Source: an uncultured Verrucomicrobiae bacterium (GTDB taxonomy: Bacteria > Verrucomicrobiota > Verrucomicrobiia > Chthoniobacterales > JAFAMB01). Taken from it: a stretch of 64,000 nt of DNA. Numbering within the stretch: the stretch's first letter is position 1; each line of letters starts with the position of its first letter. The notes beneath the pieces are model-generated. The model did no database searches. It was not told the origin of the DNA and saw nothing but the letters and a program-made list of their open reading frames with translations. The translations under genes were made by a program, and so were the position numbers. Where the stretch lies: positions 198,286-262,285 of the forward strand of contig CAVXLD010000001.1 in NCBI GenBank assembly GCA_963762565.1, given 5' to 3'. This document shows positions 7,793-63,413 of the stretch, one piece after another.

Positions 7793-7937
7793 TAGCGAAT
7801 CGGCGTGTGGGCGAAACGGCGAAAGGGCGAAATGGAAGCCGTACGGCGAAAGTTTCGGTGCGCCCATGACGTGCAACTTTCTATCGATGCCGACGCGCCG
7901 AGATTTTCGCCCTTTCGCCCATTCGCCCATTCGCCGG
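7793..7937. repeat. Array-bracketed element H1 (GGCGAAN arrays)
   Basis: Left gtgtgggcgaaacggcgaaagggcgaaatgg. Right ttttcgccctttcgcccattcgcccattcgccgg. The 67-nt core ends in gcgccgag, like a family-A left arm. Confidence 0.75.
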
Positions 7938-7953
7938 TGCGCGCTTCTAGCTC

Positions 7954-8589: not shown

Positions 8590-9651
8590 ATGATTTGGAC
8601 ACCGTTTAACTTCCGAACGACGCTGCTCTACTCAGCGGTCTGGCTCCTCCTGACAGGTACAATGGCGAAGGCAGAACCTCCGAAATTGATATTGCCAACG
8701 GAGAACGACGGCCTTTTGACCGGTAAATTCGCGGAGTTCTATCAATACGTTCAGCGCGATTTCGAGGGCCAAGTCGGCCAGCCGTGGGAGGGCGGCCAGT
8801 ATGGTTTCGTCCGGAACCCAAGACGCATTGGATCGCAGGTCATTTATACGCGATTTCACGAGGGGATCGATATCCGGCCTCTACACCGGGATGCTGCCGG
8901 CGAGCCGGAAGACATCATCCATGCAATCGCCGCCGGAACCGTAGTTTACACAAATCCTGTCGCCAGAAATTCGAACTACGGCCGGTATGTGGTCATCGAA
9001 CATCACCTGGACGGTTTCCCTTATTACAGCCTTTACGCCCATCTGAACACGATCACTGTGAATATTGGCGACTCGGTAGATCAGGGTTCACCGATTGCAG
9101 TGATGGGCCATACCGGCGAGGGGCTCGACAGGGAGCGCGCCCATGTTCATCTGGAGCTAAACCTTCTTTTGAACTCCCATTTTTCAGAATGGTTCCAGGG
9201 ACATCACTCAGCAGACATCGACCGGCACGGTATCTACAATGGGATTAACTTGGCCGGCATCGACATTGGCCGGTTTTATTTGGAGCTCCAAAAGAATCCG
9301 GAGCTTACGGTGCCTACCTTCGTTCAACAGGGAGAACCCTGGTACAGAGTCCTGGTCCCGATATCGCCCCGAATGGATCTGACCGAACGATATCCTTGGC
9401 TGTTAGAAGGCGAAACGGACGCGCCCAGCTGCGAGATCAGTTTCGACCGCACTGGGCTGCCGCTTAAGGTTCGCGGTTCTAGCGAACATGTGACACAGCC
9501 AACGGTATCCTGGGTCCATTCTTCGCCTTTCCCTCAGCATCTGTTGACCAAAGGTTTCATTCGGGACCACGGATCAGGCTACGTTCTCTCAGAGGAGGGA
9601 AACCGGTACATCAGCCTGGTTTGTGACTCGCCTCAGGCTCGCCATCAATAG
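8590..9651 (+). CDS. M23 family metallopeptidase
   Basis: HEGIDIRP, YSLYAHLN, GHTGEG and HVHLELN motifs. N-terminal signal peptide. Confidence 0.85.
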   Translation: MIWTPFNFRTTLLYSAVWLLLTGTMAKAEPPKLILPTENDGLLTGKFAEFYQYVQRDFEGQVGQPWEGGQYGFVRNPRRIGSQVIYTRFHEGIDIRPLHRDAAGEPEDIIHAIAAGTVVYTNPVARNSNYGRYVVIEHHLDGFPYYSLYAHLNTITVNIGDSVDQGSPIAVMGHTGEGLDRERAHVHLELNLLLNSHFSEWFQGHHSADIDRHGIYNGINLAGIDIGRFYLELQKNPELTVPTFVQQGEPWYRVLVPISPRMDLTERYPWLLEGETDAPSCEISFDRTGLPLKVRGSSEHVTQPTVSWVHSSPFPQHLLTKGFIRDHGSGYVLSEEGNRYISLVCDSPQARHQ

Positions 9652-14381: not shown

Positions 14382-14420
14382 CTTTGGCGTTTGGCGTGTC
14401 GGCGGACGGGACCGCAATTT

Positions 14421-14701
14421 GGTGGGGCGAGGCTCCCGAACGGAAGATGTACTTTCACAGCGCCCCTCGCTGAACCTCATGAGTTGTCGGCAACACCGAT
14501 GGACCGCCGAGCCGTCGGTCTGCAGCGTTTCAATACCCCGTTAGAATGAAGAACGTGCGTAGCAGATGCTTCAGATGCGCTGATTAGTTGTACGCGCTGG
14601 GACGCGGCTCGGCACGCCAATCGGCGAAACCTCGCGCGCAGTTTCGCAAAATCGAGCCTCTTTGTCGGAGATTTTAGGTCACTCGGGAGCCTCGCCCCAC
14701 C
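14421..14701. repeat. Family A element, copy A1 (281 nt)
   Basis: TIRs ggtggggcgaggctcccgaa (14421-14440) / tcgggagcctcgccccacc (14683-14701). Internal gccgagccg (14506-14514) / cggctcggc (14605-14613). GGCGTTT units on the left flank (14384-14405). Confidence 0.9.
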
Positions 14702-14847
14702 AACGTTGGGCCGCTACACGCGGATGCTCACAGATTCTTCCTCCGCATCCCATGCCGTAACCGACTCAAAATCAAGCAATTGCGTCTATTACGGCGACCC
14801 CCTTGCAGTTTCTGTGCCACTCTCCTACTATTCACTCACGACAACTT

Positions 14848-17019: not shown

Positions 17020-17034
17020 GGGGCCAGAAAAGTT

Positions 17035-17270
17035 GGTGGGGCGAGGCTCCGGAACTACGATTTTGTGTTCACAGGGGAGTTGATGCACTTAACCCAGCGC
17101 TCACAATTTCGATACGCTGCCGAGCCGCTGTTCTGTCGTGTGGCCGGCACCTTATTCCATGGGAGATCAGGGGAATCGGCTCGGCGGTCCTTCCGGCCTA
17201 ACGTTGCGTCCGGCGTCAAATCATCGAGGTCTCCGATATAGCGTCCGGTCTTTCGGGAGCCTCGCCCCAC
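17035..17270. repeat. Family A element, copy A2 (236 nt)
   Basis: TIRs 17035-17054 / 17252-17270. Internal 9-mers 17119-17127 / 17177-17185. Followed by cgtttcgcccattcg units. Confidence 0.9.
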
Positions 17271-17412
17271 TAATGCCCGCCGTTTCGCCCATTCGTTGCG
17301 TTTTGGTGGTTACAGTAATTGTTGCGTTCTTTCCGGTAGAAAAATCGGGAAAAGCAAGATAAAAATATAACGCCATCTCCCGCAGGCGTGTTATCATAAA
17401 GGCGATTGTATC

Positions 17413-19077: not shown

Positions 19078-19722
19078 ATGCCGATCATAAATTACGCGAG
19101 CAAAGAAATTCAGTTCAAGATCGTCTATTACGGGCCGGCCCTGAGCGGCAAAACGACTACCATTGCCTATATCCATTCGAGGTTGCCGGCTGCGTTTCGA
19201 GGAGATTTGGTGTCGTTGGCCACCGCGGCAGACCGCACCCTCTTTTTCGATTTCTTGCCGGTTGAGGCAGTGATCTTGCAAGGCTTCAAAACCAAATTCC
19301 AGCTCTACACCGTTCCGGGGCAGGTGGTGTACAATACAACCCGGCAGTTAGTCTTACGCAGCGTTGACGGCATCGTATTTGTGGCCGATTCGCACTGGGA
19401 CAAGATCCACGAAGATGTGGAGAGTTTCCGAAATCTCGAGGAAAACCTTCGCAAACAGCATCTCTCATTGGACGAGATCCCGTATGTTCTGCAGTACAAC
19501 AAACGTGACTTGCCCGATGCGGCTCCGGTGTCGTACTTAGAATTTTTGCTGAATAACCGGCGCCGACGCGCCCGAAGTTACGAAGCGATCGCAACGAAAG
19601 GACGGAGCGTCTTCGCTGCATTAGATGCCGTGACCCAAAGCGTTCTTAACCGGTTCATTCAAGAGAATCACCTTCTCAGGCCGATGCCGGCCAGAGAGAG
19701 CGCTGGGGCGGGGAGAGTGTGA
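19078..19722 (+). CDS. mglA: MglA-type Ras-like small GTPase
   Basis: KIVYYGPALSGKTTT P-loop, DRTLFFDFLP, LYTVPGQV switch II and YNKRDLP match my recollection of Myxococcus MglA along the whole length. Confidence 0.9.
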   Translation: MPIINYASKEIQFKIVYYGPALSGKTTTIAYIHSRLPAAFRGDLVSLATAADRTLFFDFLPVEAVILQGFKTKFQLYTVPGQVVYNTTRQLVLRSVDGIVFVADSHWDKIHEDVESFRNLEENLRKQHLSLDEIPYVLQYNKRDLPDAAPVSYLEFLLNNRRRRARSYEAIATKGRSVFAALDAVTQSVLNRFIQENHLLRPMPARESAGAGRV

Positions 19723-19947
19723 ATGGTGATTGGTGATTGGTGGGGCGAGGCTCCCGAAAGGCCTTTTAGTCTTATCAAGCGGGTCAGTTCTCACCCGGAG
19801 ATTATGTCCGCTACGCCGATAAACCCGCCGAGCCGTTGGTCCACGCGAACCATGGCTCGGCAGCGTTTCGGCATAGGTCGTATCGTGGTGAGGATCTTCC
19901 CCCTGCCTTGCGATCGTCATCAGGCCTTTCCGGAGCCTCGCCCTACC
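19718..19947. repeat. Family A element, copy A3 with GTGATTG array on the left
   Basis: The array gtgtgaatggtgattggtgattgg contains the mglA stop. TIRs 19739-19758 / 19928-19947. Minimal central hairpin gccgagccgttggt-ccacgcga-accatggctcggc. Confidence 0.9.
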
Positions 19948-19994
19948 AATTACCCGCAGTTGCGCTTCTTGCCACCCTCATATATGTGTCCGAA

Positions 19995-21061: not shown

Positions 21062-21783
21062 AGCCAGCGGCGCGCTCCCTGCAAAATTCCATTTTCGATT
21101 GGGATCGCCCGAGATGGAACGGACGGTTGCTGTGGCTAATTGTGTTTTCTTTAGGCCTACACTTCGCGGGACTTTACGTTTTCCATGTTGTTTACCCGTC
21201 AACCACTTCTCTGCCTCCCCCAGCGGCTCAAGTCTCGGTACTGAATCCACAAAACCCACAGGACCGCCGGCTCCTTGATTGGGTGGACCTAAACGATCCG
21301 TCTGCGATTAGCGCCCCCAAAGTAGACGACAGCCTGGTCGCAAAATTAGTCCCGGGTTATCGTCCGACGTTTAGCGACGAGACCCCTGAAATCCGGAAAA
21401 GCCAGGCCGGCGCCCCAGCCCAGGAGGCGGCTACTCCTTCGCTTTTTACTCCCGACAATCTTTTCCCTAGGCAAGTCAGGCCTGCTTCTGTTCAACGGAA
21501 GACCAGTTTCGCAAGCCACCTTGAGTTCGGGCCCGCCTTGGAAAATAGAAAACCGGCCACACCGGAGAGACTCCCGACCAGCCAGCGGCTCTCAGAACCC
21601 ACGACTTTCTTTGTGGGAATCAATAAGAAAGGCGAAGTAAAATACCTTTTTCTATTGCGAACTTCGGGAAATGATCAGCTGGATCATCTTGCCGAAGAGG
21701 CTGTTAAGCAGCTGAGATTTCAGCCCGATAACACCGAGAGCTGGGACACGGTTTCGCTGCAGTGGGGCAGCGGCGGGAAGTGA
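21058..21783 (+). CDS. TonB-like / hypothetical anchored protein
   Basis: GTGA overlap with exbD. N-terminal TM, Pro-rich linker, and a C-terminal ~70 aa (VKYLFLLRTSGNDQLDHLAEEAVKQLRFQP) compatible with a TonB C-terminal fold. Weak assignment. Confidence 0.45.
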   Translation: MKPAARSLQNSIFDWDRPRWNGRLLWLIVFSLGLHFAGLYVFHVVYPSTTSLPPPAAQVSVLNPQNPQDRRLLDWVDLNDPSAISAPKVDDSLVAKLVPGYRPTFSDETPEIRKSQAGAPAQEAATPSLFTPDNLFPRQVRPASVQRKTSFASHLEFGPALENRKPATPERLPTSQRLSEPTTFFVGINKKGEVKYLFLLRTSGNDQLDHLAEEAVKQLRFQPDNTESWDTVSLQWGSGGK

Positions 21784-21990
21784 TTAGTGATTAGTGATTA
21801 GTGATTGGTGATTGGTGGGGCGCTGGGGCGATGAAAAAACGTGTAACATGGACGCGGACTGGCACTAATACACTTATAAGTCCCGTCTTGTCATAAGCCC
21901 CATCGATATCAGCCGCGCACATCCTTGCTCTAAACGCTTTTCCATCAGCCCAGGCACCCACTAATCACCAATCACTAATCACCAATCACC
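21781..21990. repeat. TGATTAG/TGATTGG array-bracketed element (A-related variant)
   Basis: The left 5 heptamers begin with the TGA stop of the tonB-like gene and are followed by tggggcgctggggcg. Right cccactaatcaccaatcactaatcaccaatcacc. The core lacks the canonical A TIR. Confidence 0.8.
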
Positions 21991-22055
21991 TTCCCTGCCC
22001 TATTGACGCACCCGCCCCTCCGCGGGACGATGTTGGTAGCGGCCACAAACTGTCC

Positions 22056-22295
22056 ATGATTCGTATCGAACTCCCAACCCTGATCTTCATCTATCTTTTT
22101 CTTTCTGTGATTGTGATCGGCGGCCTCTGGTTGTTCGATGGTTGGCGGGTCCAAAAACGTAAAAAACAAGCCTTGCGTTACGCGGTCCGGTGCACGATTT
22201 GTGCCTCTATTTTCGAAGATAAGACCAATGAGCTGCTACCTCGTTGCCCACGATGCGGCAGCTTAAATGAGAGAAGAAACTTTGGAGGACTTTGA
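22056..22295 (+). CDS. Small membrane protein with C-terminal zinc ribbon
   Basis: 79 aa. One TM (LIFIYLFLSVIVIGGLWLF) and CxxC...CxxC (CTIC...CPRC). Confidence 0.45.
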   Translation: MIRIELPTLIFIYLFLSVIVIGGLWLFDGWRVQKRKKQALRYAVRCTICASIFEDKTNELLPRCPRCGSLNERRNFGGL

Positions 22296-23532: not shown

Positions 23533-24780
23533 GTGATGAGCGATAGACGTGTTGTAGTCACCGGGTTGGGTGTTATCACACCAATCGGTAATGACCTTAA
23601 AACCTTTTGGGAGAACCTTGTAGCGGGGAAAAACGGGATCCGTAAGATCTCGCATTTCGACGCCTCCATCTTCGACTGTCACATTGCCGGCGAGGTGCCA
23701 GATTTCGATCCCATTACGTATCTGGCTAATCCTAAGGACGTTCGGCGGACCGACCGTTTTTCCCAATTTGCTCTGGCCTGCTCAAAGCGGGCCCTAGAAG
23801 ACAGTGGTCTCGATCTGGAACGCATCGACCGCACTCGGGTCGGCGTCCTGGTCGGCAGTGGGATCGGCGGCTTGAGCACACTGGAGACCCAACATGTGGT
23901 TTTCTTGAAGAAAGGCCCTTCCAGAGTGTCTCCCTTCATGGTGCCAATGATGATCGTGAACATGGCCAGCGGATTAATCGCGATGGAATACGGCTTTGAA
24001 GGCCCGAATTATTCTATCGTGACCGCTTGTGCCACCTCCGCGAACTCCATTGGCGAAGCTTGGAGGATGATTCGCGATGATGAAGCCGAGATTTTCTTGG
24101 CCGGCGGTACCGAGGCGGTCATCAATAATCTTGGCCTCGGCGGCTTCTGTGCGATGCGGGCGATGAGCACGAGAAACGATGAACCGCACCGGGCATCGCG
24201 CCCATTCGATAGGGAACGAGACGGGTTCGTGATGGGTGAAGGCGGTGGAGTCTTAATTCTCGAGGAGTACGAACACGCAAAGGCTCGAGGGGCACGCATC
24301 TACTGCGAACTCGCTGGTTATGGACTTACCTGCGATGCTTACCACATGACCGCGCCCAAACCCGATGGGACGCCGGTAGCGCGAGGGATGCAAATCGCCG
24401 CGAAGCGGGCCGGCGTTAATCCGACGGATATTGATTACATCAACGCTCACGCCACATCGACACAGGTCGGCGATGTTTGCGAAACGAATGCGATTAAACG
24501 GTTCGCCGGTGATTACGCGAAAAATGGTCTTTTGATTAGCTCAACCAAATCGATGATTGGTCATCTGCTCGGCGGCGCTGGAGCAGTAGAAAGCGCGGTC
24601 TGCATCCTTGCCATGCAACATGGTGTGGTGCCGCCCACGATCAATCTCGACAATCCTGACCCTGAGTGCGACCTCGACTACGTCCCAAATGTCGCACGCG
24701 AGAAAAAAGTACGAGTCGCACTTAATAATTCGTTTGGCTTCGGCGGCCACAACGCATCGCTTTGTTTCAAAGCATTGTAG
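23533..24780 (+). CDS. fabF: 3-oxoacyl-ACP synthase II
   Basis: RRVVVTGLGVITPIG, ACATS active-site Cys, HATST and GHLLGGAG motifs. Confidence 0.95.
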   Translation: MMSDRRVVVTGLGVITPIGNDLKTFWENLVAGKNGIRKISHFDASIFDCHIAGEVPDFDPITYLANPKDVRRTDRFSQFALACSKRALEDSGLDLERIDRTRVGVLVGSGIGGLSTLETQHVVFLKKGPSRVSPFMVPMMIVNMASGLIAMEYGFEGPNYSIVTACATSANSIGEAWRMIRDDEAEIFLAGGTEAVINNLGLGGFCAMRAMSTRNDEPHRASRPFDRERDGFVMGEGGGVLILEEYEHAKARGARIYCELAGYGLTCDAYHMTAPKPDGTPVARGMQIAAKRAGVNPTDIDYINAHATSTQVGDVCETNAIKRFAGDYAKNGLLISSTKSMIGHLLGGAGAVESAVCILAMQHGVVPPTINLDNPDPECDLDYVPNVAREKKVRVALNNSFGFGGHNASLCFKAL

Positions 24781-24939
24781 GGGGCGTTTGGCGTTCGGCG
24801 TTCGGCGTTTGGCGTTCGGCGTTCGGCGTTCCTATGATTCGAAATGATTGCAACACTGCGGATCTGTCGTGGCTCGTGAGCAAGCGACGCGCGTTATTGA
24901 AGCGCCGAACGCCAAACGGTGAACGCCGAACGCCAAACG
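24781..24939. repeat. Array-bracketed element G1 (GGCGTTY arrays)
   Basis: Seven GGCGTTY units (24781-24830) start 1 nt after the fabF stop. A 71-nt core follows. The inverted array gcgccgaacgccaaacggtgaacgccgaacgccaaacg is at 24902-24939. Confidence 0.85.
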
Positions 24940-25800
24940 AGTAAGTACGTCGTTCTTCTGCTCCTGACCGCATTGTTTTGGTCGTTGGGAGGAGTCCTCA
25001 TCAAGTCCATCGATTGGAATCCTGTCGCCATTGCGGGTTCGCGAAGCTTGATCGCCGTCTTCCTAATCGCCATCCTGCGACCGTCCGCCGTCCGTAAATT
25101 TTCCTGGACCGCATTCTTCGGCGGAATCGCCTACATGGTGACAGTTGTGTTGTTCGTGATTGCAACCAAGCTGACAACCGCTGCCAATGCCATTTTTCTC
25201 CAGTACACGGCTCCGATTTATATCGCTCTGATAAGCCCATGGCTTTTGAAGGAACGTGTTCGTCGACTGGACTGGATTCTGATCGGTCTTGCTTTCGGCG
25301 GAATTGCTCTCTTTTTCTGCGACCGGCTCTCCTTTGCCGGAATTTGGGGAGTAATGGCCGCACTTGTCAGCGGCTTCTCCTACGCGTGGCTTACGATGCT
25401 GTTGCGTCGCCAAAAATCGGCATCCCCCGAAGCCACGGTGTTCATAGGCAACTTGATGACTGTGTTAGTGGCGGCTCCGGCGATGTGGCCGCCGGTGAAC
25501 CTGGGCCATAATTGGCCTTGGCTGCTTGCCTTGGGCGTCCTCCAGCTCACGATTCCCTATTTGCTTTATACACAGGCTATCCGGCATGTGCGTGCGCTGG
25601 ATGCATCTATAATCAGCATGATCGAGCCGATCCTTAATCCGATCTGGGTCATGTTTGCCGTGGGCGAACATCCCGCCAGATGGGCAATCGTCGGAGGATG
25701 CATGGTCCTGGGAACCTCTTTGCTACGGAGTATCTTCGCCTCGCGCGAGCCCGAATCCGAATTCGCCTTAGGCTCATCCGGAATGACAAATGACAGATGA
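24919..25800 (+). CDS. DMT (EamA) family transporter
   Basis: About 10 TM helices in two EamA-like halves. The start is uncertain because the first codons lie in the GGCGTTY-type array. The stop and last ~13 codons lie in element F1. Confidence 0.75.
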   Translation: MNAERQTSKYVVLLLLTALFWSLGGVLIKSIDWNPVAIAGSRSLIAVFLIAILRPSAVRKFSWTAFFGGIAYMVTVVLFVIATKLTTAANAIFLQYTAPIYIALISPWLLKERVRRLDWILIGLAFGGIALFFCDRLSFAGIWGVMAALVSGFSYAWLTMLLRRQKSASPEATVFIGNLMTVLVAAPAMWPPVNLGHNWPWLLALGVLQLTIPYLLYTQAIRHVRALDASIISMIEPILNPIWVMFAVGEHPARWAIVGGCMVLGTSLLRSIFASREPESEFALGSSGMTNDR

Positions 25801-25902
25801 AAAATGACAGATTGGGAAATCCTTCGGTCACACGCGTTCTATTTCGGACATTTGTCATCTGTCATTTGTCATTTGTCATTCGAAACGAGCCTCAGGCGAG
25901 TT
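25760..25902. repeat. Family F element, copy F1 (143 nt)
   Basis: aattcgccttaggctcatccggaATGACAAATGACAGATGAAAAATGACAG, core attgggaaatccttcggtcacacgcgttctatttcggac, then the inverted TGTCATY array and cgaaacgagcctcaggcgagtt. Confidence 0.9.
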
Positions 25903-27243: not shown

Positions 27244-27377
27244 GGCTCCTTCAAGATGACAATGACAGATGACAGATGACAAATGTCCGAAATAGACCGC
27301 GCGTGACCGAAGGATCTCCCAATCTGTCATCTGTCATTTGTCATTCCGAACGAGCCTCAGGCGAGTTCGGCTGATAG
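27244..27377. repeat. Family F element, copy F3 (core inverted relative to F1/F2)
   Basis: aactcgctgaggctccttcaagATGACAATGACAGATGACAGATGACAA, core atgtccgaaatagaccgcgcgtgaccgaaggatctcccaatc, then TGTCATCTGTCATTTGTCATtccgaacgagcctcaggcgagtt. Confidence 0.9.
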
Positions 27378-28230: not shown

Positions 28231-28524
28231 TTGTGTCCTGTCCCATAAGTAACATGGCTTTCGCCGTCGGCCAGTTGGCTGTTTTTCAAGGCGCGAGCGA
28301 AGCGCCCATATCTGGTTCATACGGGTCGAGCGAGCAACGCGGAAAAACAGCCAACTGGCCACGGCCCGGAGGGTTGCGATGAAAATGGGCCGGCGGCTGC
28401 GTTGCTCGTCGGTTACGTATCGATCAAGATATGCGCCCTCTACCGCCAGTCCGGCTCGGACCGCCTTGCCGGCGGCCCATTTTGATCGCAACGAAAGCCA
28501 TGTTACTTATGGGACAGGACACTA
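28231..28524. mobile_element. Family D MITE-like element, copy D1 (294 nt)
   Basis: About 33-nt TIRs: tgtgtcctgtcccataagtaacatggctttcg / cgaaagccatgttacttatgggacaggacacta. It fills the gap between the SBP stop (28522-28524) and the permease start (28216). About 96% identical to D2. Confidence 0.9.
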
Positions 28525-29649
28525 GTTGGCAGTCGCGATCCGATCCGCAAACGAGGGATCGAGCAATTCATTCACGATCCTGTCCACGTCGGTGTTGGGA
28601 TCGATGATTCCGTTCGCTTTCAAGGCGTTGGCGGAATCCAGAATAACCTGGCGCTGAGTCGCTCCGAGCCGCGAATCCTTCAGGTTGGTCCTTTCCCACA
28701 CCTTCTCCGCAACGGCCGGGCTTAATTGAGCCGCTGACTGTAGGATGGTACGCGCTTCGTCCGAATGATCCAGGCACCACAGGCGGGCTTTCTCATAAGT
28801 TCGGAGAACGCGCTCAGTAATATCCGGATGCTCGAAAGCGAAAGCTTCCCGTACGTTCAATACCCCGAAACTGTTCCAATCCGCTCGGCGAAAAAACAGC
28901 TTAAATCCCTTGTCGACCTCTAGCTGTGCCATGTACGGATCCAGCCCGGCCCAAGCATCGACCTGCCCCCGTTCCAACGCGACTTTGCCGTCGGGATGCT
29001 GCAAAGGTACAACCTGGATATCCTTTTCGCTCAACCCAGCGGAGGCGAGTGACCGCAAAAGAAAAATATGAGGATCAGTTCCGCGAGTCACGGCCACGCG
29101 TTTGCCACGCAGATCTTCGATCCGCGTTATTCCGGAGCTTGGGCTTGTTACCAGCGCGGTCCATTCGGGCGCAGAATAAACGTAAATCGCTTTGATTGGG
29201 TTGCCGTTTGCTCGCCCGATAAATGCCGCCGCTCCCGCGGTTGAGCCGAAGTCGACACTTTTGCCCCTTAGATACTCCAGCGCTTTGTTACTACCCAGGC
29301 TCTGCACCCACTCCACCTTGATGCCGCTTGAGCCCAGATCCTCCTCTAGCCATTTCTTGTCCTTGAGCACCAGGCTAATCGGATTGTAGTACGCCCAATC
29401 GACTCGAACGGTGTCGACGCTTCCGGCCTTGGAAAATTCGCCAAACCAGAGCGACCCAAACAAACACATAAGGGACAAAATCGAGCTCAGGCGACCTCGC
29501 CTCGGTGATGGCTTAGTTGTGTCACCGTACGCGCGAGGGGGATTGTACCTCGGGCTGCCATGCCTGGAAGATCGAAGTCGGACGGAAAGAATACTGTGCT
29601 GATAGGGTTTCACCCTCCCCATCTCTAGATGTAATCCGCCCGAACGCAA
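28522..29649 (-). CDS. ABC transporter substrate-binding protein, NMT1/SsuA-like
   Basis: Periplasmic-binding-protein pattern (VRVDWAYYNPISLVLK..., AVTRGTDPHIFLL). The start codon is uncertain, with several in-frame ATGs between 29469 and 29649. Confidence 0.8.
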   Translation of the reverse strand: MRSGGLHLEMGRVKPYQHSILSVRLRSSRHGSPRYNPPRAYGDTTKPSPRRGRLSSILSLMCLFGSLWFGEFSKAGSVDTVRVDWAYYNPISLVLKDKKWLEEDLGSSGIKVEWVQSLGSNKALEYLRGKSVDFGSTAGAAAFIGRANGNPIKAIYVYSAPEWTALVTSPSSGITRIEDLRGKRVAVTRGTDPHIFLLRSLASAGLSEKDIQVVPLQHPDGKVALERGQVDAWAGLDPYMAQLEVDKGFKLFFRRADWNSFGVLNVREAFAFEHPDITERVLRTYEKARLWCLDHSDEARTILQSAAQLSPAVAEKVWERTNLKDSRLGATQRQVILDSANALKANGIIDPNTDVDRIVNELLDPSFADRIATAN

Positions 29650-29688
29650 GCCGTTTCGCGCCTAGCGCAGGCGAGCCGGTCACGACTT

Positions 29689-29892
29689 GGAGGGGAGCCG
29701 CTTTGGAATTTTGCGGATCCGTAAGTTGGCAGCAAGCGGCTCCCGGGAACGGTCCAGGGCTGGGCAGCTCTGTGACGGCTTCAAATCGATGCTTGCAACC
29801 GGGTTCTTCCGCCGTGCCTCACATTGGGTAATTCCCGGGAGCCGCTTGCTACCAACCTACAGATCTGCCACGCTACAAAGCGGCTCCCCTCC
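29689..29892. repeat. Family B element, copy B2 (204 nt, double nested inverted repeats)
   Basis: Outer ggaggggagccgctttg (29689-29705) / caaagcggctcccctcc (29876-29892). Inner ttggcagcaagcggctcccgggaa (29726-29749) / ttcccgggagccgcttgctaccaa (29832-29855). Confidence 0.9.
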
Positions 29893-30018
29893 AGTCCTTG
29901 GGCGTGCGACGCCACCGGGCTGATTGCGATGACGAGAACGAAGATGATCGCGCCACAGTGATCACTCACTCCTTGCAAGCCCAGCAGCTCCAGGCCACGG
30001 TTTGGCAGACCTAAAGTT

Positions 30019-31053
30019 ATGATGAACTATCGTTTACTCGGTCGGAGCGGGCTGCGAGTTTCGGAGCTCTGCTTAGGAACCATGACCTTCGGGGAAGATT
30101 GGGGTTGGGGAGCTCCCAAGGATGAAGCACGGAAAATCTACGACGCGTTTCGCGAAGCCGGCGGCAATTTTATCGATACGGCTAACGTTTATACGCAGGG
30201 TTCGAGCGAAACCTTTCTCGGCGAGTTCTTTTCGGAACACCGTGATAGCGTGGTTCTCGCCACGAAATACACCAATGCGCTAACCACCAATGACCCGAAT
30301 GCCGGGGGAAACCAGCGCAAGAATATGATGCAAGCCGTTGAAGGCAGTTTGCGTCGCCTGAAAACCGATTACATCGACCTCTATTGGCTTCATATCTGGG
30401 ATCAAATGACGCCAGTTGAAGAAGTGATGCGCGCCTTCGATGACCTGGTTCGCCAAGGTAAAGTCCTTTATGTCGGCGTTTCCGATGCACCTGCCTGGTG
30501 GATCAGTAAAGCGAATACGATCGCTGAGCTCCGTGGATGGTCGCCCTTCGTCGGTCTGCAGATTGAGTATTCACTGATCGAACGTACGGTCGAACGGGAG
30601 CTGATTCCGGCAGCGAAACATCTTGGGCTCACGGTCACCGCCTGGTCACCTTTAGCGGGTGGCGTTCTCACCGGCAAATATGCGTCAGGCGAAGCCACCG
30701 ACTCCCGTTATTCTACCGAAATGATGAAACAATGGTTACCAGAGCAAACTCGGACTGCTCGCATCGTTGAGGCTCTTCAGAATGTCAGTAAACAGACCGG
30801 ACGGAGTAAAGCCCAGATCGCATTGGCTTGGCTGCGACATCGCGCCGTCCCGGTTATCCCTATTGTGGGCGCCCGCAAACTGACTCAGCTTGAAGACAAC
30901 ATCGCCAGTCTGACACTCACTCTCACTCCGGACCAACTGGCCTTATTGGATGAGGCCAGTCAGATCGAGCTCGGTTTCCCGTACCACTTCTACGCTAACG
31001 AGATGGTCCGCACGTTCGTGTACGGCGGTGTAAGGGACCACATAATCACGTGA
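30019..31053 (+). CDS. Aldo/keto reductase
   Basis: YRLLGRSGLRVSELCLGTMTFG, IDTANVY and LYWLH motifs. Confidence 0.9.
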   Translation: MMNYRLLGRSGLRVSELCLGTMTFGEDWGWGAPKDEARKIYDAFREAGGNFIDTANVYTQGSSETFLGEFFSEHRDSVVLATKYTNALTTNDPNAGGNQRKNMMQAVEGSLRRLKTDYIDLYWLHIWDQMTPVEEVMRAFDDLVRQGKVLYVGVSDAPAWWISKANTIAELRGWSPFVGLQIEYSLIERTVERELIPAAKHLGLTVTAWSPLAGGVLTGKYASGEATDSRYSTEMMKQWLPEQTRTARIVEALQNVSKQTGRSKAQIALAWLRHRAVPVIPIVGARKLTQLEDNIASLTLTLTPDQLALLDEASQIELGFPYHFYANEMVRTFVYGGVRDHIIT

Positions 31054-31345
31054 TTAGTGATTAGTGATTGGCGATGGCGCTGGTCGGGCGAGGCTCCCGA
31101 AAGAACTAAAGTCTCTAACGAAGATCCAGACGTTTCGGCCTGAAAGAGTTTGTTAGGCCGATCGGTGTGCCGAGCCGTGGTTCCGCGCGTAACCCGGCTC
31201 GGCGCGTTGCTAGAAGTAGCATGCCTTCTTAATTCGGAATGCGAAGGGAGATGGAAAATCACAGAGTCTTTCGGGAGCCTCGCCCTACCAACGGCGTCTC
31301 ATCCACCATCACCTCTCACCAATCACCAATCACTTCTCACCTTCT
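31051..31345. repeat. Family A element, copy A5 with inverted TGATTAG-type arrays
   Basis: The array starts on the aldo/keto reductase TGA stop. TIRs 31082-31101 / 31270-31289. Central hairpin gccgagccgtggtt-ccgcgcgt-aacccggctcggc. Right array atcaccaatcaccaatcact (to ~31345). Confidence 0.9.
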
Positions 31346-33564: not shown

Positions 33565-33858
33565 TAGTGTGCTGTCCCATAAATAACATGGCTTTCGCCG
33601 TCGGTCAGTTGGCTGTTTTTCAAGGCGCGAGCGAAGCGCCCATATCTGGTTCATACGGGTCGAGCGAGCAACGCGGAAAAACAGCCAACTGGCCTCGGCC
33701 CGGAGGGTTGCGATGAAAATGGGCCGGCGGCTGCGTTGCTCGTCGGTTACGTATCGATCTAGATATGCGCCCCTTACCGCCAGTCCGGCTCGGACCGCCT
33801 TACCGGCGGCCCATTTTGATCACAACGAAAGCCATGTTATTTATGGGACAGCACACTA
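33565..33858. mobile_element. Family D MITE-like element, copy D2 (294 nt)
   Basis: TIRs tagtgtgctgtcccataaataacatggctttcg / cgaaagccatgttatttatgggacagcacacta. About a dozen substitutions versus D1 and no indels. Confidence 0.9.
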
Positions 33859-33865
33859 GGAGCGC

Positions 33866-36053: not shown

Positions 36054-36055
36054 AT

Positions 36056-36182
36056 GTGGAGCGCTGCCTCGCTTGCGAGGCCGTGGTGAGCAGGGCAAGA
36101 TGCTGTGTCATACGCCATTTTTTCGATGCTAGGTGACGTCGCCCTGCTTACCAACGGCCTCGCAAGCGAGGCAGCGCTCCAC
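36056..36182. repeat. Family E element, copy E1 (127 nt)
   Basis: About 40-nt TIRs: gtggagcgctgcctcgcttgcgaggccgtggtgagcagggc / gccctgcttaccaacggcctcgcaagcgaggcagcgctccac. Each TIR holds the self-complementary CCTCGCTTGCGAGG. Confidence 0.9.
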
Positions 36183-36266
36183 ACGGCGTTCTGGCGCGTT
36201 TACTTGACGCAGAAACGTTCAGGCAGATACTTACGCCGCTAGTCTCCCTATTTATCCCCCAAAACC

Positions 36267-38767: not shown

Positions 38768-38817
38768 CCATGGAAGACATCCCCCAACCTGCCTTTGGCC
38801 GACGCAATTCGGACCCG

Positions 38818-39022
38818 GAGGGGAGCCGCTTTATCGTTAGGCAGCTCTGTAATTCGGCAGCAAGCGGCTCCCGAGAACGGCCCCGGATGATGCAGGTCTA
38901 TTGGGCAGCCATATCGACCAGCTTGGAACAGAGCCGCTGGGCAAATATTTACGCTGGGTTATTCCCGGGAGCCGCCTGCTGCCAACTGATAGGACTGCCA
39001 CACTACAAAGCGGCTCCCCTCC
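38818..39022. repeat. Family B element, copy B3 (205 nt)
   Basis: Outer repeats 38818-38834 / 39006-39022. Inner repeats 38853-38877 / 38962-38985. The right flank ctgggcatgcgacgcc resembles the B2 flank. Confidence 0.9.
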
Positions 39023-39068
39023 AGGCGCTGGGCATGCGACGCCGTGTTCTTAGAAGCACGAAGCGCAC

Positions 39069-46607: not shown

Positions 46608-46648
46608 GTAAGAGCGGAACGTAACACAGCATTACAAATAACCAAGCT

Positions 46649-46894
46649 GGTGGGGCGAGGCTCCGGAATAACCTGAAATGGCAAACGGAGAACTCGATTT
46701 AGTCTAAACCGAGATCGCGCTTCGCCAATGGGCGCGCCGAGCCGATCCCAGCGTGTGGCAGCCGACGATCGGTCAGGGGGGGTGGAACATGCTGGGACCG
46801 GCTCGGCGCGTTTAGCGGCATCGCCCACGATAGATTGGCAAACATTGACGTCCTCCGCTCGAGCAAAGCGGCCGTTCGGGAGCCTCGCCCCACC
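46649..46894. repeat. Family A element, copy A6 (246 nt)
   Basis: TIRs 46649-46668 / 46875-46894. Internal 9-mers 46736-46744 / 46799-46807. Confidence 0.9.
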
Positions 46895-46902
46895 AACGCC
46901 TC

Positions 46903-53727: not shown

Positions 53728-53886
53728 GAAACGAGCGAGAACGAGCGGAAACGAACGAGAAAGTTCGGAAGCGAGGATTGGCGGGGCGAGGCTCCCGCAG
53801 GACCCTGCGCGACGCCAGGGTTTAAGGCAATTCGATTCCGGATGTAATGTTAGGCCGAAACAAGCGCCGAGCCGCTCGTTTCTCCT
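53728..53886. repeat. Family A half element A7 (left half only) with GAACGAG arrays
   Basis: gaaacgagcgagaacgagcggaaacgaacgagaaag array, TIR ggcggggcgaggctcccgca (53780-53799), a 66-nt arm, gccgagccg (53866-53874), then immediately ctcgtttctc. Confidence 0.75.
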
Positions 53887-54883: not shown

Positions 54884-55200
54884 AGTAAGCGGTAAGCAGT
54901 AAGCAGTGGTCAGTACTACGAGCTAAAATCCAGGAGCTAGGAGGGCCGACGGCTGTGGAGCGTGCCTCGCTTGCGAGTCCGTGGTGAGCAAGGCTCATTA
55001 CGTGACATCCCCATCGTCGGCGTACGCTCTTTTGTCTGAAGAGGCAAACCTTGCGATACAGAGCGCTGACCGACATAGGGCATGTGTCGTGGTTCACCCT
55101 TGCTCTCCAACGGCCTCGCAAGCGAGGCACGCTCCACGGCCGTCGCCCCTCCTAGCTCCTAAATTCTAGCTCCTAGCTCCTAAACTGCTTACTGCTTACT
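54884..55200. repeat. Family E element, copy E2, with two nested layers of inverted arrays
   Basis: AGTAAGC units then AGCTAGGAG units on the left. TIRs 54955-54993 / 55098-55137. CTCCTAGCT units then GCTTACT units on the right. Confidence 0.9.
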
Positions 55201-57046: not shown

Positions 57047-57194
57047 GGTGAGCGAGGCTCCGGCACGACAAAATGCATTGCCAAACCCAGCGATAGGCCC
57101 GGCTCGGCGAGCTGTGCAGCGTTGCACCGGTCAAGTAGGGGCAGCATAGCGGCTTTGCGAAAATCGATCGGTCGTTCGGGAGCCTCGCCCTACC
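57047..57194. repeat. Family A half element A8 (left TIR joined to right half)
   Basis: ggtgagcgaggctccggca (57047-57065), only cggctcggc (57100-57108), a 66-nt right arm, and TIR ttcgggagcctcgccctacc (57175-57194). Confidence 0.75.
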
Positions 57195-57243
57195 ACGCTC
57201 GTTGACGGCGTCGTGTTGCCATGCATACCTGACCCTTCGTCCT

Positions 57244-61026: not shown

Positions 61027-61035
61027 AGGGTTTTT

Positions 61036-61317
61036 GGTAGGGCGAGGCTCCCGAACATCCCGACATCTTCGCAACGCCGGGGATGATCTTCTACCAGTGT
61101 ATTAACGTGGCCGATCAGCGCGCCGAGCCGTTGGTCCCAGCGAGTTCCATGACCCACAAGAACGGATCGAAGGTTTTTAAAAGTTCTCGCACGTCGAAGC
61201 GGTTAAATCAGCGCTGGGTAAATCGGCTCGGCGGGCAGACCGGGGCTGGACGCGTTTAATCCAAAAAATCACGGGCCCTGCGAAAGTGCATTCGTAATTC
61301 GGGAGCCTCGCCCTACC
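61036..61317. repeat. Family A element, copy A9 (282 nt)
   Basis: TIRs ggtagggcgaggctcccgaa (61036-61055) / ttcgggagcctcgccctacc (61298-61317). Internal 9-mers 61122-61130 / 61224-61232. Confidence 0.9.
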
Positions 61318-61370
61318 CCCCTCGCAGAGTCCTAGCTAACCAGGACGATTCTGCTACCATAGCCGCATCA

Positions 61371-63125: not shown

Positions 63126-63335
63126 GAGGGGAGCCGCTTTGTCAGACGCTAGCTGTGTTCGGTCGGCAGCAGGCGGCTCCCGGGAATAGCCCAGCGCGTT
63201 CTATTTATCCAGCGCCTACTTCGTTGAAGCACCGACACGGACAGAGCCTATAGAGCTGGATTACCTGGCAGACGTTACCGGGAGCCGCCTGCAAGCAACC
63301 GATAGACCTGCCAACTTACAAAGCGGCTCCCCTCC
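63126..63335. repeat. Family B element, copy B4 (210 nt)
   Basis: Outer repeats 63126-63142 / 63319-63335. Inner tcggcagcaggcggctcccgggaa (63163-63186) / ttaccgggagccgcctgcaagcaa (63275-63298). Confidence 0.85.
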
Positions 63336-63342
63336 GGCGCCG

Positions 63343-63413
63343 CGTCGCCGATACGCCCATTCGCCCTTTCGCCCGTTCGCCGATACGCCCACACGCCGAC
63401 ACGCCCATACCCC
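63343..63413. repeat. One-sided NTTCGCC-type array upstream of cdsA
   Basis: cgtcgccgatacgcccattcgccctttcgcccgttcgccgatacgcccacacgccgacacgcccatacccc. No mirrored partner on the left of B4. Confidence 0.7.

Follow-up and report, generated by a model that had tools for sequence, protein, structure and literature searches.

The intergenic repeat shown above is copy A5 of a family, family A, which on sequence grounds is a REPIN-like element with each of its REPs split by ~70 nt. The explanation that we regard as probable is that family A is a REPIN-type non-autonomous element (two inverted REPs) belonging to a REP/RAYT (HUH-Y1) system of soil Chthoniobacterales, and that its propagation is limited by geometry.

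Copies of family A and the length of their arms

Read inward from either end, a full element consists of an outer block, TTGGT[G/A]GGGCGAGGCTCCCGAA, which forms a terminal inverted repeat (TIR), followed by an arm and then by the inner 9-mer GCCGAGCCG. Within the window, by which we mean the whole 64-kb stretch of DNA that was analysed, the TIR core GGGCGAGGCTCCCGAA has 17 matches with at most 3 mismatches (0.9 expected) and the 9-mer has 13 (1.3 expected). Family A is present there as six full and two half copies, all of them intergenic and frequently beginning a few bases 3' of a stop codon (Table 1). The two halves of every full copy are perfect complements of each other over their outer blocks (20-22 bp) and over their inner 9-mers, and column 6 of the TIR (G/A) covaries between both ends of the element. 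Many more copies are found in Verrucomicrobiota MAGs and soil metagenomes. The genome-collection loci bearing family A belong to Verrucomicrobiota and Chthoniobacterales MAGs, and the named relatives of a window protein are from Chthoniobacterales and Verrucomicrobia MAGs. The ENA contig ERZ25039468:contig_87558 encodes a protein 98% identical to a window protein, and this contig is 98-99% identical to the window.

Table 1. Positions of the family A copies in the window and of the parts of copy A5, with the adjoining heptamer arrays
Feature	Position	Strand	Remarks
Heptamer array GTGATTA/GTGATTG...	31050..31079	+	adjoins left end of A5; begins at stop codon of ORF 30019-31053
A5, whole copy	31080-31291
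A5 left outer block (TIR) ctggtcGGGCGAGGCTCCCGAA	31080..31101	+	REP 5' part; includes the GT[A/G]G tag position
A5 left arm	31102..31168	+	67 nt, variable filler, with a degenerate REP 5' part in its final ~17 nt (TTAGGCCGATCGGTGT)
A5 inner block, 9-mer GCCGAGCCG	31169..31177	+	REP 3' part
A5 centre	31178..31194		17 nt; in master copies the RAYT gene occupies the same position
A5 inner block, inverted CGGCTCGGC	31195..31203	-
A5 right arm	31204..31269	-	66 nt, without complementarity to left arm
A5 right outer block TTCGGGAGCCTCGCCCtaccaa	31270..31291	-
Inverted heptamer array CACCAAT...	31292..31345	-	adjoins right end of A5; counterpart of the 31050..31079 array
Copy A1	14419..14703		arms 65/68 nt, centre 90 nt
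Copy A2	17033..17273		arms 64/66 nt, centre 49 nt; orthologues in L149/L199 and L247
Copy A3	19737..19949		arms 68/66 nt; right arm 19862-19927, its 9-mer with 1 mismatch
Copy A6	46647..46896		arms 67/67 nt, centre 54 nt
Copy A9	61034..61319		arms 66/65 nt, centre 93 nt
Half element, single REP-like unit	53778..53874	+	TIR, 66-nt arm, 9-mer; TIR-core hit 53784+
Half element	57100..57196	-	9-mer, 66-nt arm, TIR; TIR-core hit 57190-; degenerate opposite TIR at 57050-57065

With arm length taken as the gap that separates the TIR core from the 9-mer, the left-arm and right-arm lengths given in a preliminary description of this DNA for the six full copies, and the 66-nt arm of both half elements, were exactly reproduced (Table 1). 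Outside the window, our sample consisted of ~230 loci from one genome-collection scan and one metagenome scan. The 16-mer pattern used for the genome collection was too short, and the 112 loci that it returned are mostly chance matches, with ~19 useful Verrucomicrobiota loci among them. For the spacing test, we took the TIR-core hits in the fetched loci that had an exact 9-mer within 200 nt, the spacing itself not being preset. In 198 of the 202 resulting block pairs the spacing is 64-70 nt (64 nt in 7 pairs, 65 in 13, 66 in 43, 67 in 57, 68 in 56, 69 in 19 and 70 in 3). One of the four outliers is a genuine 55-nt arm (L197), which is the one true short arm among ~240, and the rest represent a duplicated block or chance matches. 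The broad distribution that the preliminary description had named as evidence against a fixed arm length thus did not emerge from the larger sample, in which 219 non-identical arms range from 63 to 70 nt with a mean of 67.0 nt and a standard deviation of 1.29.

The centres of the same elements behave quite differently, spanning 7-125 nt across 88 full elements (sd 34) and falling into loose classes near 18, 48 and 90-105 nt. By this comparison (arm sd 1.3 nt versus centre sd 34 nt), length is held far more tightly in the arms than in the adjoining centres, which supports the earlier suggestion of a spacing constraint in part. Left and right arm lengths correlate within elements (r=0.33, p=0.0014), which fits shared (subfamily) ancestry or a symmetry requirement alike.

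The further claim of a fixed spacing without indels has to be divided. Larger indels are indeed nearly absent from the arms, but single-base indels accumulate with divergence: the mean squared difference in arm length climbs from 0.25 (d~0.05) through 1.3 (d~0.5) and 2.8 (d~1) to 3.7 nt^2 at saturation, an approximately linear rise without a clear plateau. Since changes of ±1-3 nt build up in this way, a strict ruler is unproven, and in view of the near-linear rise to a maximum of ~3.7 nt^2, length constancy may partly be a matter of inheritance and of small indels being rare. One could go further and suppose that a single ancestral insertion or duplication of ~70 nt split the REP and that its length has been inherited ever since, small indels being rare, the family too young for length to drift, and the distance without any function that depends on it. 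Besides the steady rise of the squared length difference, this supposition can draw on 24 comparisons of arms 70-90% identical, of which 10 already show a length difference of 1-4 nt, and on the left/right correlation, which would be expected from shared subfamily ancestry. We nevertheless consider it unlikely, as the centres of the same elements vary as widely as they do, a 39-nt indel lies in the centre and none in the arms of the orthologues L122/L129, and only a single truly short arm was found. Moreover, bacterial genomes have a deletion bias, which ought to wear away the 134 nt that each copy would carry to no purpose. Our reading is that selection removes indels of more than 2-3 nt from the arms, though not from the centre, and that single-base changes drift. 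Why arm length is held is something that we infer.

Sequence and structure of the arms

In a MAFFT alignment of 219 half units, the outer block and the 9-mer are invariant. The arm between them carries weak motifs, namely nGACC directly after the TIR, C-R-R-R-G near positions 40-44, and (C/T)TAGGCCGA and GCGC just before the 9-mer. Positions 46-73 of the alignment hold essentially no information; identity between copies over this 28-nt core is ~30%, compared with the 25% expected at random or from base composition, and the mean pairwise identity of the arms is 38%. The description of the arm sequence as free is therefore nearly accurate for the 28-nt core and overstated for the arm ends, with their weak motifs and their degenerate REP part. 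A literature search on the sequence motif of the repeat returned no match. An IHF-like motif in the arms was judged by eye to be too weak.

Pairwise comparisons of the arms gave mixed results. The arms are more conserved than 4-fold sites between the window and L149 and between L126 and L169, they are at background identity between the window and L178 and among the master copies (elements with a RAYT gene in their centre, described below), and in a comparison of near-identical strains their divergence outpaces that of third codon positions. With the comparisons mixed, purifying selection on the arm sequence was dropped as a general claim. A coding reading of the arms was ruled out because their lengths change by steps other than multiples of 3.

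Pairing between the two arms of an element is likewise absent. In A5, as the preliminary description had stated, the arms are not complementary, the left arm being 36% identical in register to the reverse-complemented right arm. Across elements, left arms and reverse-complemented right arms are 45% identical, compared with 38% for shuffled partners, an excess that is significant and small, and identity is at least 55% in just 17 of 88 elements. A diverged stem was rejected on the grounds that left/right complementarity barely exceeds that of shuffled partners.

Nor was a fold found within the arms. Folding z-scores against dinucleotide shuffles average 0.03 and -0.08 on the two strands (n=219), and RNAalifold and mutual information across the 219 half units detected no consensus structure and no covarying column pairs in the arm, the sole pairing being that of the outer block with the 9-mer. 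Searches of Rfam yielded no relevant match, either for the whole window at the gathering threshold or for two copies at E<=10. A structured RNA was rejected on these three counts, and the suggestion of a structure measured by its length finds no support in folding or covariation. That the copies encode one or more structured ncRNAs whose conserved fold keeps the arm length is thus an idea to which we attach scarcely any credence, even though whole-element folds are very stable owing to the terminal and inner stems, and copies lie just downstream of genes. The orientation of the element also flips between orthologues, which speaks against an ncRNA: at L126/L169 and at L024/L222 it is inverted in place with collinear flanks.

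The same tolerance of inversion in place between orthologous loci would agree with spacing along a DNA duplex, in which a dimeric host protein or the RAYT would contact both blocks on one face of the helix with the intervening DNA wrapped or bent. The blocks lie ~82 bp apart from start to start, or ~7.8 turns, and helical phase would set the length to within ~±3 bp. The element has dyad symmetry, with identical weak motifs at corresponding positions of its two halves when these are read inward, arm lengths are spread over less than one helical turn, and the arms lack single-strand structure. In contrast, ±3 bp amounts to ~±100 degrees of twist, more play than would be expected of a phased loop, and there are no secondary peaks at 67±10.5 nt. 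The binding protein is hypothetical, and HUH-Y1 transposases of the family of 4ER8 act on single-stranded hairpins. As such, we hold spacing along the duplex to be quite improbable.

A transposase gene between the inner blocks and the compact form of the REP

In one metagenome contig, L138, the outer blocks are 750 nt apart and a 152-aa ORF lies between the two 9-mers. Its product matches the NCBIfam model NF047646 (REP-associated tyrosine transposase) with E=5.6e-19 over profile positions 11-145 of 146, at 68.5 bits, which is under the curated cut-off of 80. Pfam returned no match to this ORF. The best PDB match is 4ER8, the TnpA-REP of E. coli (E=7.8e-8), with an alignment that spans the HUH and Tyr motifs (PHHLHLF / PEHMHCI and YMKMNPVRAGLV / YIYINPVKHGWV). 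A database search with the same ORF retrieved 283 homologues, some of which are labelled RayT or carry PF01797.

Homologues of 70-81% identity (L233-L239 and L250-L253) are all found in the arrangement TIR-arm(64-67)-9mer-RAYT-9mer'-arm-TIR', which holds for every one with readable DNA. Their RAYT gene has the same neighbours throughout, methyltransferase-like and UvrA-like genes, and in L233, L238, L250 and L251-253 the neighbours GT9, methyltransferase-like and UvrA-like are the same. A single-copy, syntenic transposase gene flanked by the repeat of its genome is the signature of REP/REPIN-RAYT systems (PMC3116915; PMC5581495). As identical ends bracket the RAYT gene, the centre of the short copies corresponds to the position of that gene in the master copies. 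The 64-kb window contains no RAYT gene, so for the genome of the window we infer the link to a RAYT from the homology of the element ends.

The master copies also bear on the supposition that arm length is simply inherited. Their arms, orthologous by synteny, have drifted to background identity, and the 4-fold sites of their RAYT genes are saturated (0.29-0.54), yet the arms are still 64-67 nt long.

More distant relatives provide the connection between the two blocks. RAYTs of 50-64% identity (L240, L245/L246 and L248) are flanked by a compact REP in which GGTAGGGCGAGGCTCCC runs straight into GCCGAGCCG, and both blocks are contiguous in a Pirellulaceae locus (L064) too. The compact REP is ~26 nt long, GTAG-tagged, and reads GGTAGGGCGAGGCTCCCGCCGAGCCG. 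An inverted doublet of compact REPs in L240 forms a hairpin with z=-5.8. L241, the locus of a RAYT that is still further removed, follows this design but differs in its stem: GTAGGG is succeeded by one 8-bp strand of the stem, a loop of TCCC and the complementary strand of 8 bp. Because the TIR and the internal 9-mer adjoin in these compact relatives, we identify them as the two halves of one REP. Being one continuous REP in related lineages, both flanking blocks are very likely the recognition sequences of one protein, a RAYT. The proposal in the preliminary description of two protein-binding sites held at a set distance is therefore supported as far as the sites go, but not as far as a strict ruler is concerned.

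The arm itself retains a trace of this history. Aligned in register 0, the last 17 nt of the arm share 7.2 of 17 positions with the 5' part of the compact REP, compared with ~4.4 in other registers. With these inner 17 nt in exact REP register, each half unit resembles two direct REP copies ~70 nt apart, and it looks, judging by the alignment, as if the outer copy retains its 5' part and the inner copy its 3' part. The weak motif preceding the 9-mer would then be the degenerate 5' part of the inner REP. Across the arm, the outer block and the 9-mer are able to pair, either GGCGAGGC to GCCGAGCC with two G.A mismatches in the stem, or GGCTC to GAGCC. Since the compact REP's own small hairpin is thermodynamically undistinctive and indistinguishable from shuffles (z about -0.3), we take the tandem-G.A stem as something that may form.

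Locus turnover, related systems and meaning

Comparison of orthologous loci revealed retention, replacement and inversion of family A copies. Copy A2 is retained in L149/L199 with arms 65% and 84% identical and no indel, in a vicinity where 4-fold sites are 0.41-0.57 identical between the window and these loci. The A3 locus of L149/L199 is occupied by another family of palindromic repeats, and conversely L178 has a family A copy where the window carries a different palindrome. At the A5 locus, the copy in L178 has little in common with A5 beyond the family motifs, and its centre is 118 nt long. In L247, a strain contig 98-99% identical to the window in its genes, the entire spacer of the A1 locus is different and lacks the element, without being a precise empty site. 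The turnover at the A1, A3 and L178 loci is consistent with mobility. No clean excision or insertion polymorphism of a family A copy was seen among the strains and species compared, and 101 copies showed no target-site duplication or conserved flank beyond TTGGTR. About 11% of copies lie inside larger copy-specific palindromes (at least 14 of 20 flank positions complementary), and palindromic outer flanks were rejected as a general target because they are confined to this fraction.

The missing target-site duplication also bears on the label of MITE used in the preliminary description. An ordinary DDE-derived MITE would decay neutrally except at its transposase-binding TIR and a subterminal site, and it could account for TIRs of 20-22 bp, for intergenic copies and for size classes indicative of internal deletion. 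Between the ends of family A, however, the one gene found codes for an HUH tyrosine transposase (RAYT), not for a DDE enzyme. A true TA-duplicating MITE is present in the window as well (28233-28525), and it is unlike family A, with copies 96% identical and a clean empty site in strain L247. We consider a DDE-derived origin hardly tenable, and replace the label with that of a REPIN-like repeat linked to an HUH tyrosine transposase.

The nearly identical strain L247 also gave a view of change within single arms. Between the window and L247, the arms of A2 are 95% identical, and the right arm of A3 differs at 23 of 66 positions without an indel, mostly within a patch of ~27 nt; third codon positions near A3 are 95-98% identical. 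In the window version of this patch, 10 of 12 positions match the complement of the left arm, which, as a single case, would fit a template-switch event. No donor arm for the replaced patch was found in the sequences compared.

Taken with the compact REP and the RAYT, the preferred explanation of family A as a geometry-limited REPIN-type element would work as follows. The RAYT would recognise both blocks on single-stranded DNA, which would keep the blocks, and the copies propagated or retained would be those with both blocks in a workable geometry. Recognition of single-stranded DNA has been shown for the TnpA-REP of E. coli. Arm indels of more than 2-3 nt would be purged, while substitutions, indels of ±1 nt and patchwise replacement, whether through template switching or through conversion anchored in the invariant blocks, would be tolerated. 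The centre would be free to shrink, as its sole cargo was the transposase gene.

A different view of the arms would make them a functional, exchangeable cassette belonging to a domesticated HUH system, with a RAYT clade co-evolved to need its blocks ~70 nt apart and with locus-specific sequence that has a role of its own. The spacing would then represent a measured single-stranded loop or a wrapped duplex, and the unpaired filler would be rewritten patchwise at constant length, as in the 27-nt patch of A3. We regard this as very unlikely; if it were true, the copy-specific arm sequence could pair with a nucleic acid in trans.

Seen as a REPIN-type element, family A has close counterparts among known systems. 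The REPINs of P. fluorescens SBW25 and E. coli have two invariant inverted blocks at perfectly conserved distances (Bertels & Rainey 2011, PMC3116915). Length-conserved, sequence-variable spacers are thus already known for REPINs and for REP dimers (PMC3116915, PMC3733652), and the fixed-length variable spacer of family A is, as a result, not new in kind. Family A shares with REPINs its many extragenic copies, two inverted conserved blocks, a less conserved spacer of conserved length, singlet remnants, a GT[A/G]G tag at the outer end and the lack of target-site duplication, and in both the same blocks flank a syntenic HUH-Y1 transposase gene, single-copy in REPIN systems and putatively so in family A. 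In contrast, family A elements measure 190-310 bp, two to three times the ~100 bp of REPINs, and their REP is split by ~70 nt, whereas that of REPINs is a compact imperfect palindrome of 20-40 bp. The arms of family A are unpaired, whereas REPIN spacers keep their hairpin complementarity by compensatory changes, and the RAYT gene is enclosed by the inner blocks of a doublet, instead of having a complete REP hairpin on either side. The host also differs, being an uncultured soil Verrucomicrobium, unlike SBW25 and E. coli. What is new in family A is the split REP, the unpaired arms, the size of the element and the position of the RAYT gene between the inner blocks.

The survey of GTAG-REP dimers by Di Nocera et al. 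2013 (PMC3733652) covers dimers of the HH type and includes a verrucomicrobium, Opitutus terrae. Family A resembles the HH dimers in its outward GTAG tag, in being an inverted dimer and in that some copies are nested in larger palindromes. For the GTAG-REP dimers of that survey, stem lengths are 5-13 bp and loop lengths 2-20 bp (PMC3733652), as against a loop equivalent of ~74 nt in family A, and their variable piece of conserved length lies between the two units rather than within each unit.

Other small bacterial repeats are further removed. With the PATEs derived from IS200/IS605, and with further hairpin elements mobilised by HUH enzymes, family A shares a Y1 HUH enzyme, the recognition of a subterminal DNA structure, and the lack of TIR-type cleavage and of target-site duplication. 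The ends of PATEs, unlike those of family A, are not inverted repeats of each other, and the TnpA of IS200/IS605 is multi-copy and travels with the element, whereas the enzyme of family A is syntenic and putatively single-copy. Correia/NEMIS, ERIC and RPE are likewise intergenic, 100-300 bp long and imperfectly palindromic with terminal inverted repeats, but they either go with DDE transposons that duplicate their target or lack a known enzyme. To our knowledge, none of Correia/NEMIS, ERIC, RPE and similar repeats has been described with two invariant blocks and a non-pairing filler of fixed length.

Family A repeats take up a large part of the DNA between genes here, and they will confound assembly, annotation and screens for ncRNAs and MITEs. 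REPIN-RAYT systems are studied as long-lived, vertically inherited replicators in bacterial genomes, and what a RAYT recognises and what limits its passengers are poorly understood. Family A offers a natural experiment in this regard, with the same REP compact in some lineages and split by 67 ± 1.3 nt in others, and with the freely variable centre as an internal control in the split form. The geometry of an HUH tyrosine transposase is thereby made directly testable with synthetic substrates, and REPIN biology is extended to the abundant uncultured Verrucomicrobia of soil.

Spacer turnover between near-identical strains

In strain L247, whose genes are 98-99% identical to those of the window, the spacer that precedes the sigma-54 gene (14397-14755 in the window, 7051-7346 in L247) is wholly different, with 99% identity in the genes on either side. 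The window spacer holds a short GGCGTTT array and A1, a copy of the REPIN-type repeat family A, whereas that of L247 holds a long array and approximately 230 nt of unrelated sequence. At 17128-17176, 17274-17412 and 21784-22266, the two strains diverge by 10-15% in intergenic sequence, compared to 2-5% at third codon positions. Turnover of spacers here is much faster than that of genes.

Between the same near-identical strains, the right arm of family-A copy A3 (19862-19927) differs from that of L247 by 23 substitutions in 66 nt with no indels. These substitutions are concentrated in a patch of approximately 27 nt, and the window's version of the arm is partly complementary to the A3 left arm.

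A recent MITE insertion is also seen between these strains. The two copies of this MITE (see table) are 96% identical, with terminal inverted repeats beginning GTGTCCTGTCCCATAAGTAACATGGCTTTCG, and L247 lacks the copy at 28233-28525, having a clean empty site, cccctcTAattggc, in its place. This copy is a recent IS630/Tc1-like insertion and, with its TA target duplication and clean empty site, the MITE is unlike family A.

Repeats and arrays (coordinates refer to the window unless a contig is named)
Feature	Position	Description
MITE	28233-28525	293 bp; TIRs of ~37 bp; TA target duplication
MITE	33567-33859	as above
Second palindromic family	29684-29913
Second palindromic family	38812-39043
Second palindromic family	63159-63356
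Second palindromic family	L149 ~590-880
Inverted repeat	54916-54982 / 55110-55176	67 nt; 90% complementary; arms 127 nt apart
Tandem 7-/8-nt array	31050-31079 / 31292-31345
Tandem 7-/8-nt array	19719-19742
Tandem 7-/8-nt array	21780-21822 / 21948-21994
Tandem 7-/8-nt array	24776-24842 / 24896-24939
Tandem 7-/8-nt array	25789-25873 / 27261-27345
Tandem 7-/8-nt array	7795-7950
Tandem 7-/8-nt array	63337-63412

Arrays and junctions at element ends

Tandem arrays of 7- or 8-nt units flank palindromic elements of the window as inverted pairs. Beside family A, the array unit ATTGGTG matches the 7 nt at the outer edge of the conserved block, which looks as though the element's end had been reiterated. 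In the contigs L182 (10815-10950), L164 and L183, similar arrays are enclosed by these outer blocks, replacing arms and 9-mers. Five half units with differing arms (L166, L198, L222 from 9864, L231 and L143) end in GCCGA followed by CnTGTCCGACGTAGC in place of GCCG, a recurrent junction to other sequence that falls within the 9-mer. Some family-A copies (L150 ~800-1070, L173 and L224) have on both sides a compact GTAG-tagged REP that belongs to a different family (GGTAGGGATGAGCTCGCGCTCATC / TAGGGACGAGCTCCTGCTCATCC).

Inversion and exchange at shared loci

At orthologous loci with collinear flanking genes, family-A copies are found inverted in place (L126 7999-8280 versus L169 4943-5224; L024 366-601 versus L222 13078-13314). 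The spacer orthologous to that of A3 holds, in the related contigs L149/L199, the second palindromic family (GGAGGGGAGCCGCTTT ... AAGCGGCTCCCGGGAA), with well-paired arms of 62-78 nt. A different palindrome (GGAGCGCTGCCTCGCTTGCGAGGCCG...) occupies 36054-36266, at exactly the place where contig L178, from a related genome, carries a family-A copy (9267-9464); lineages exchange intergenic palindromes.
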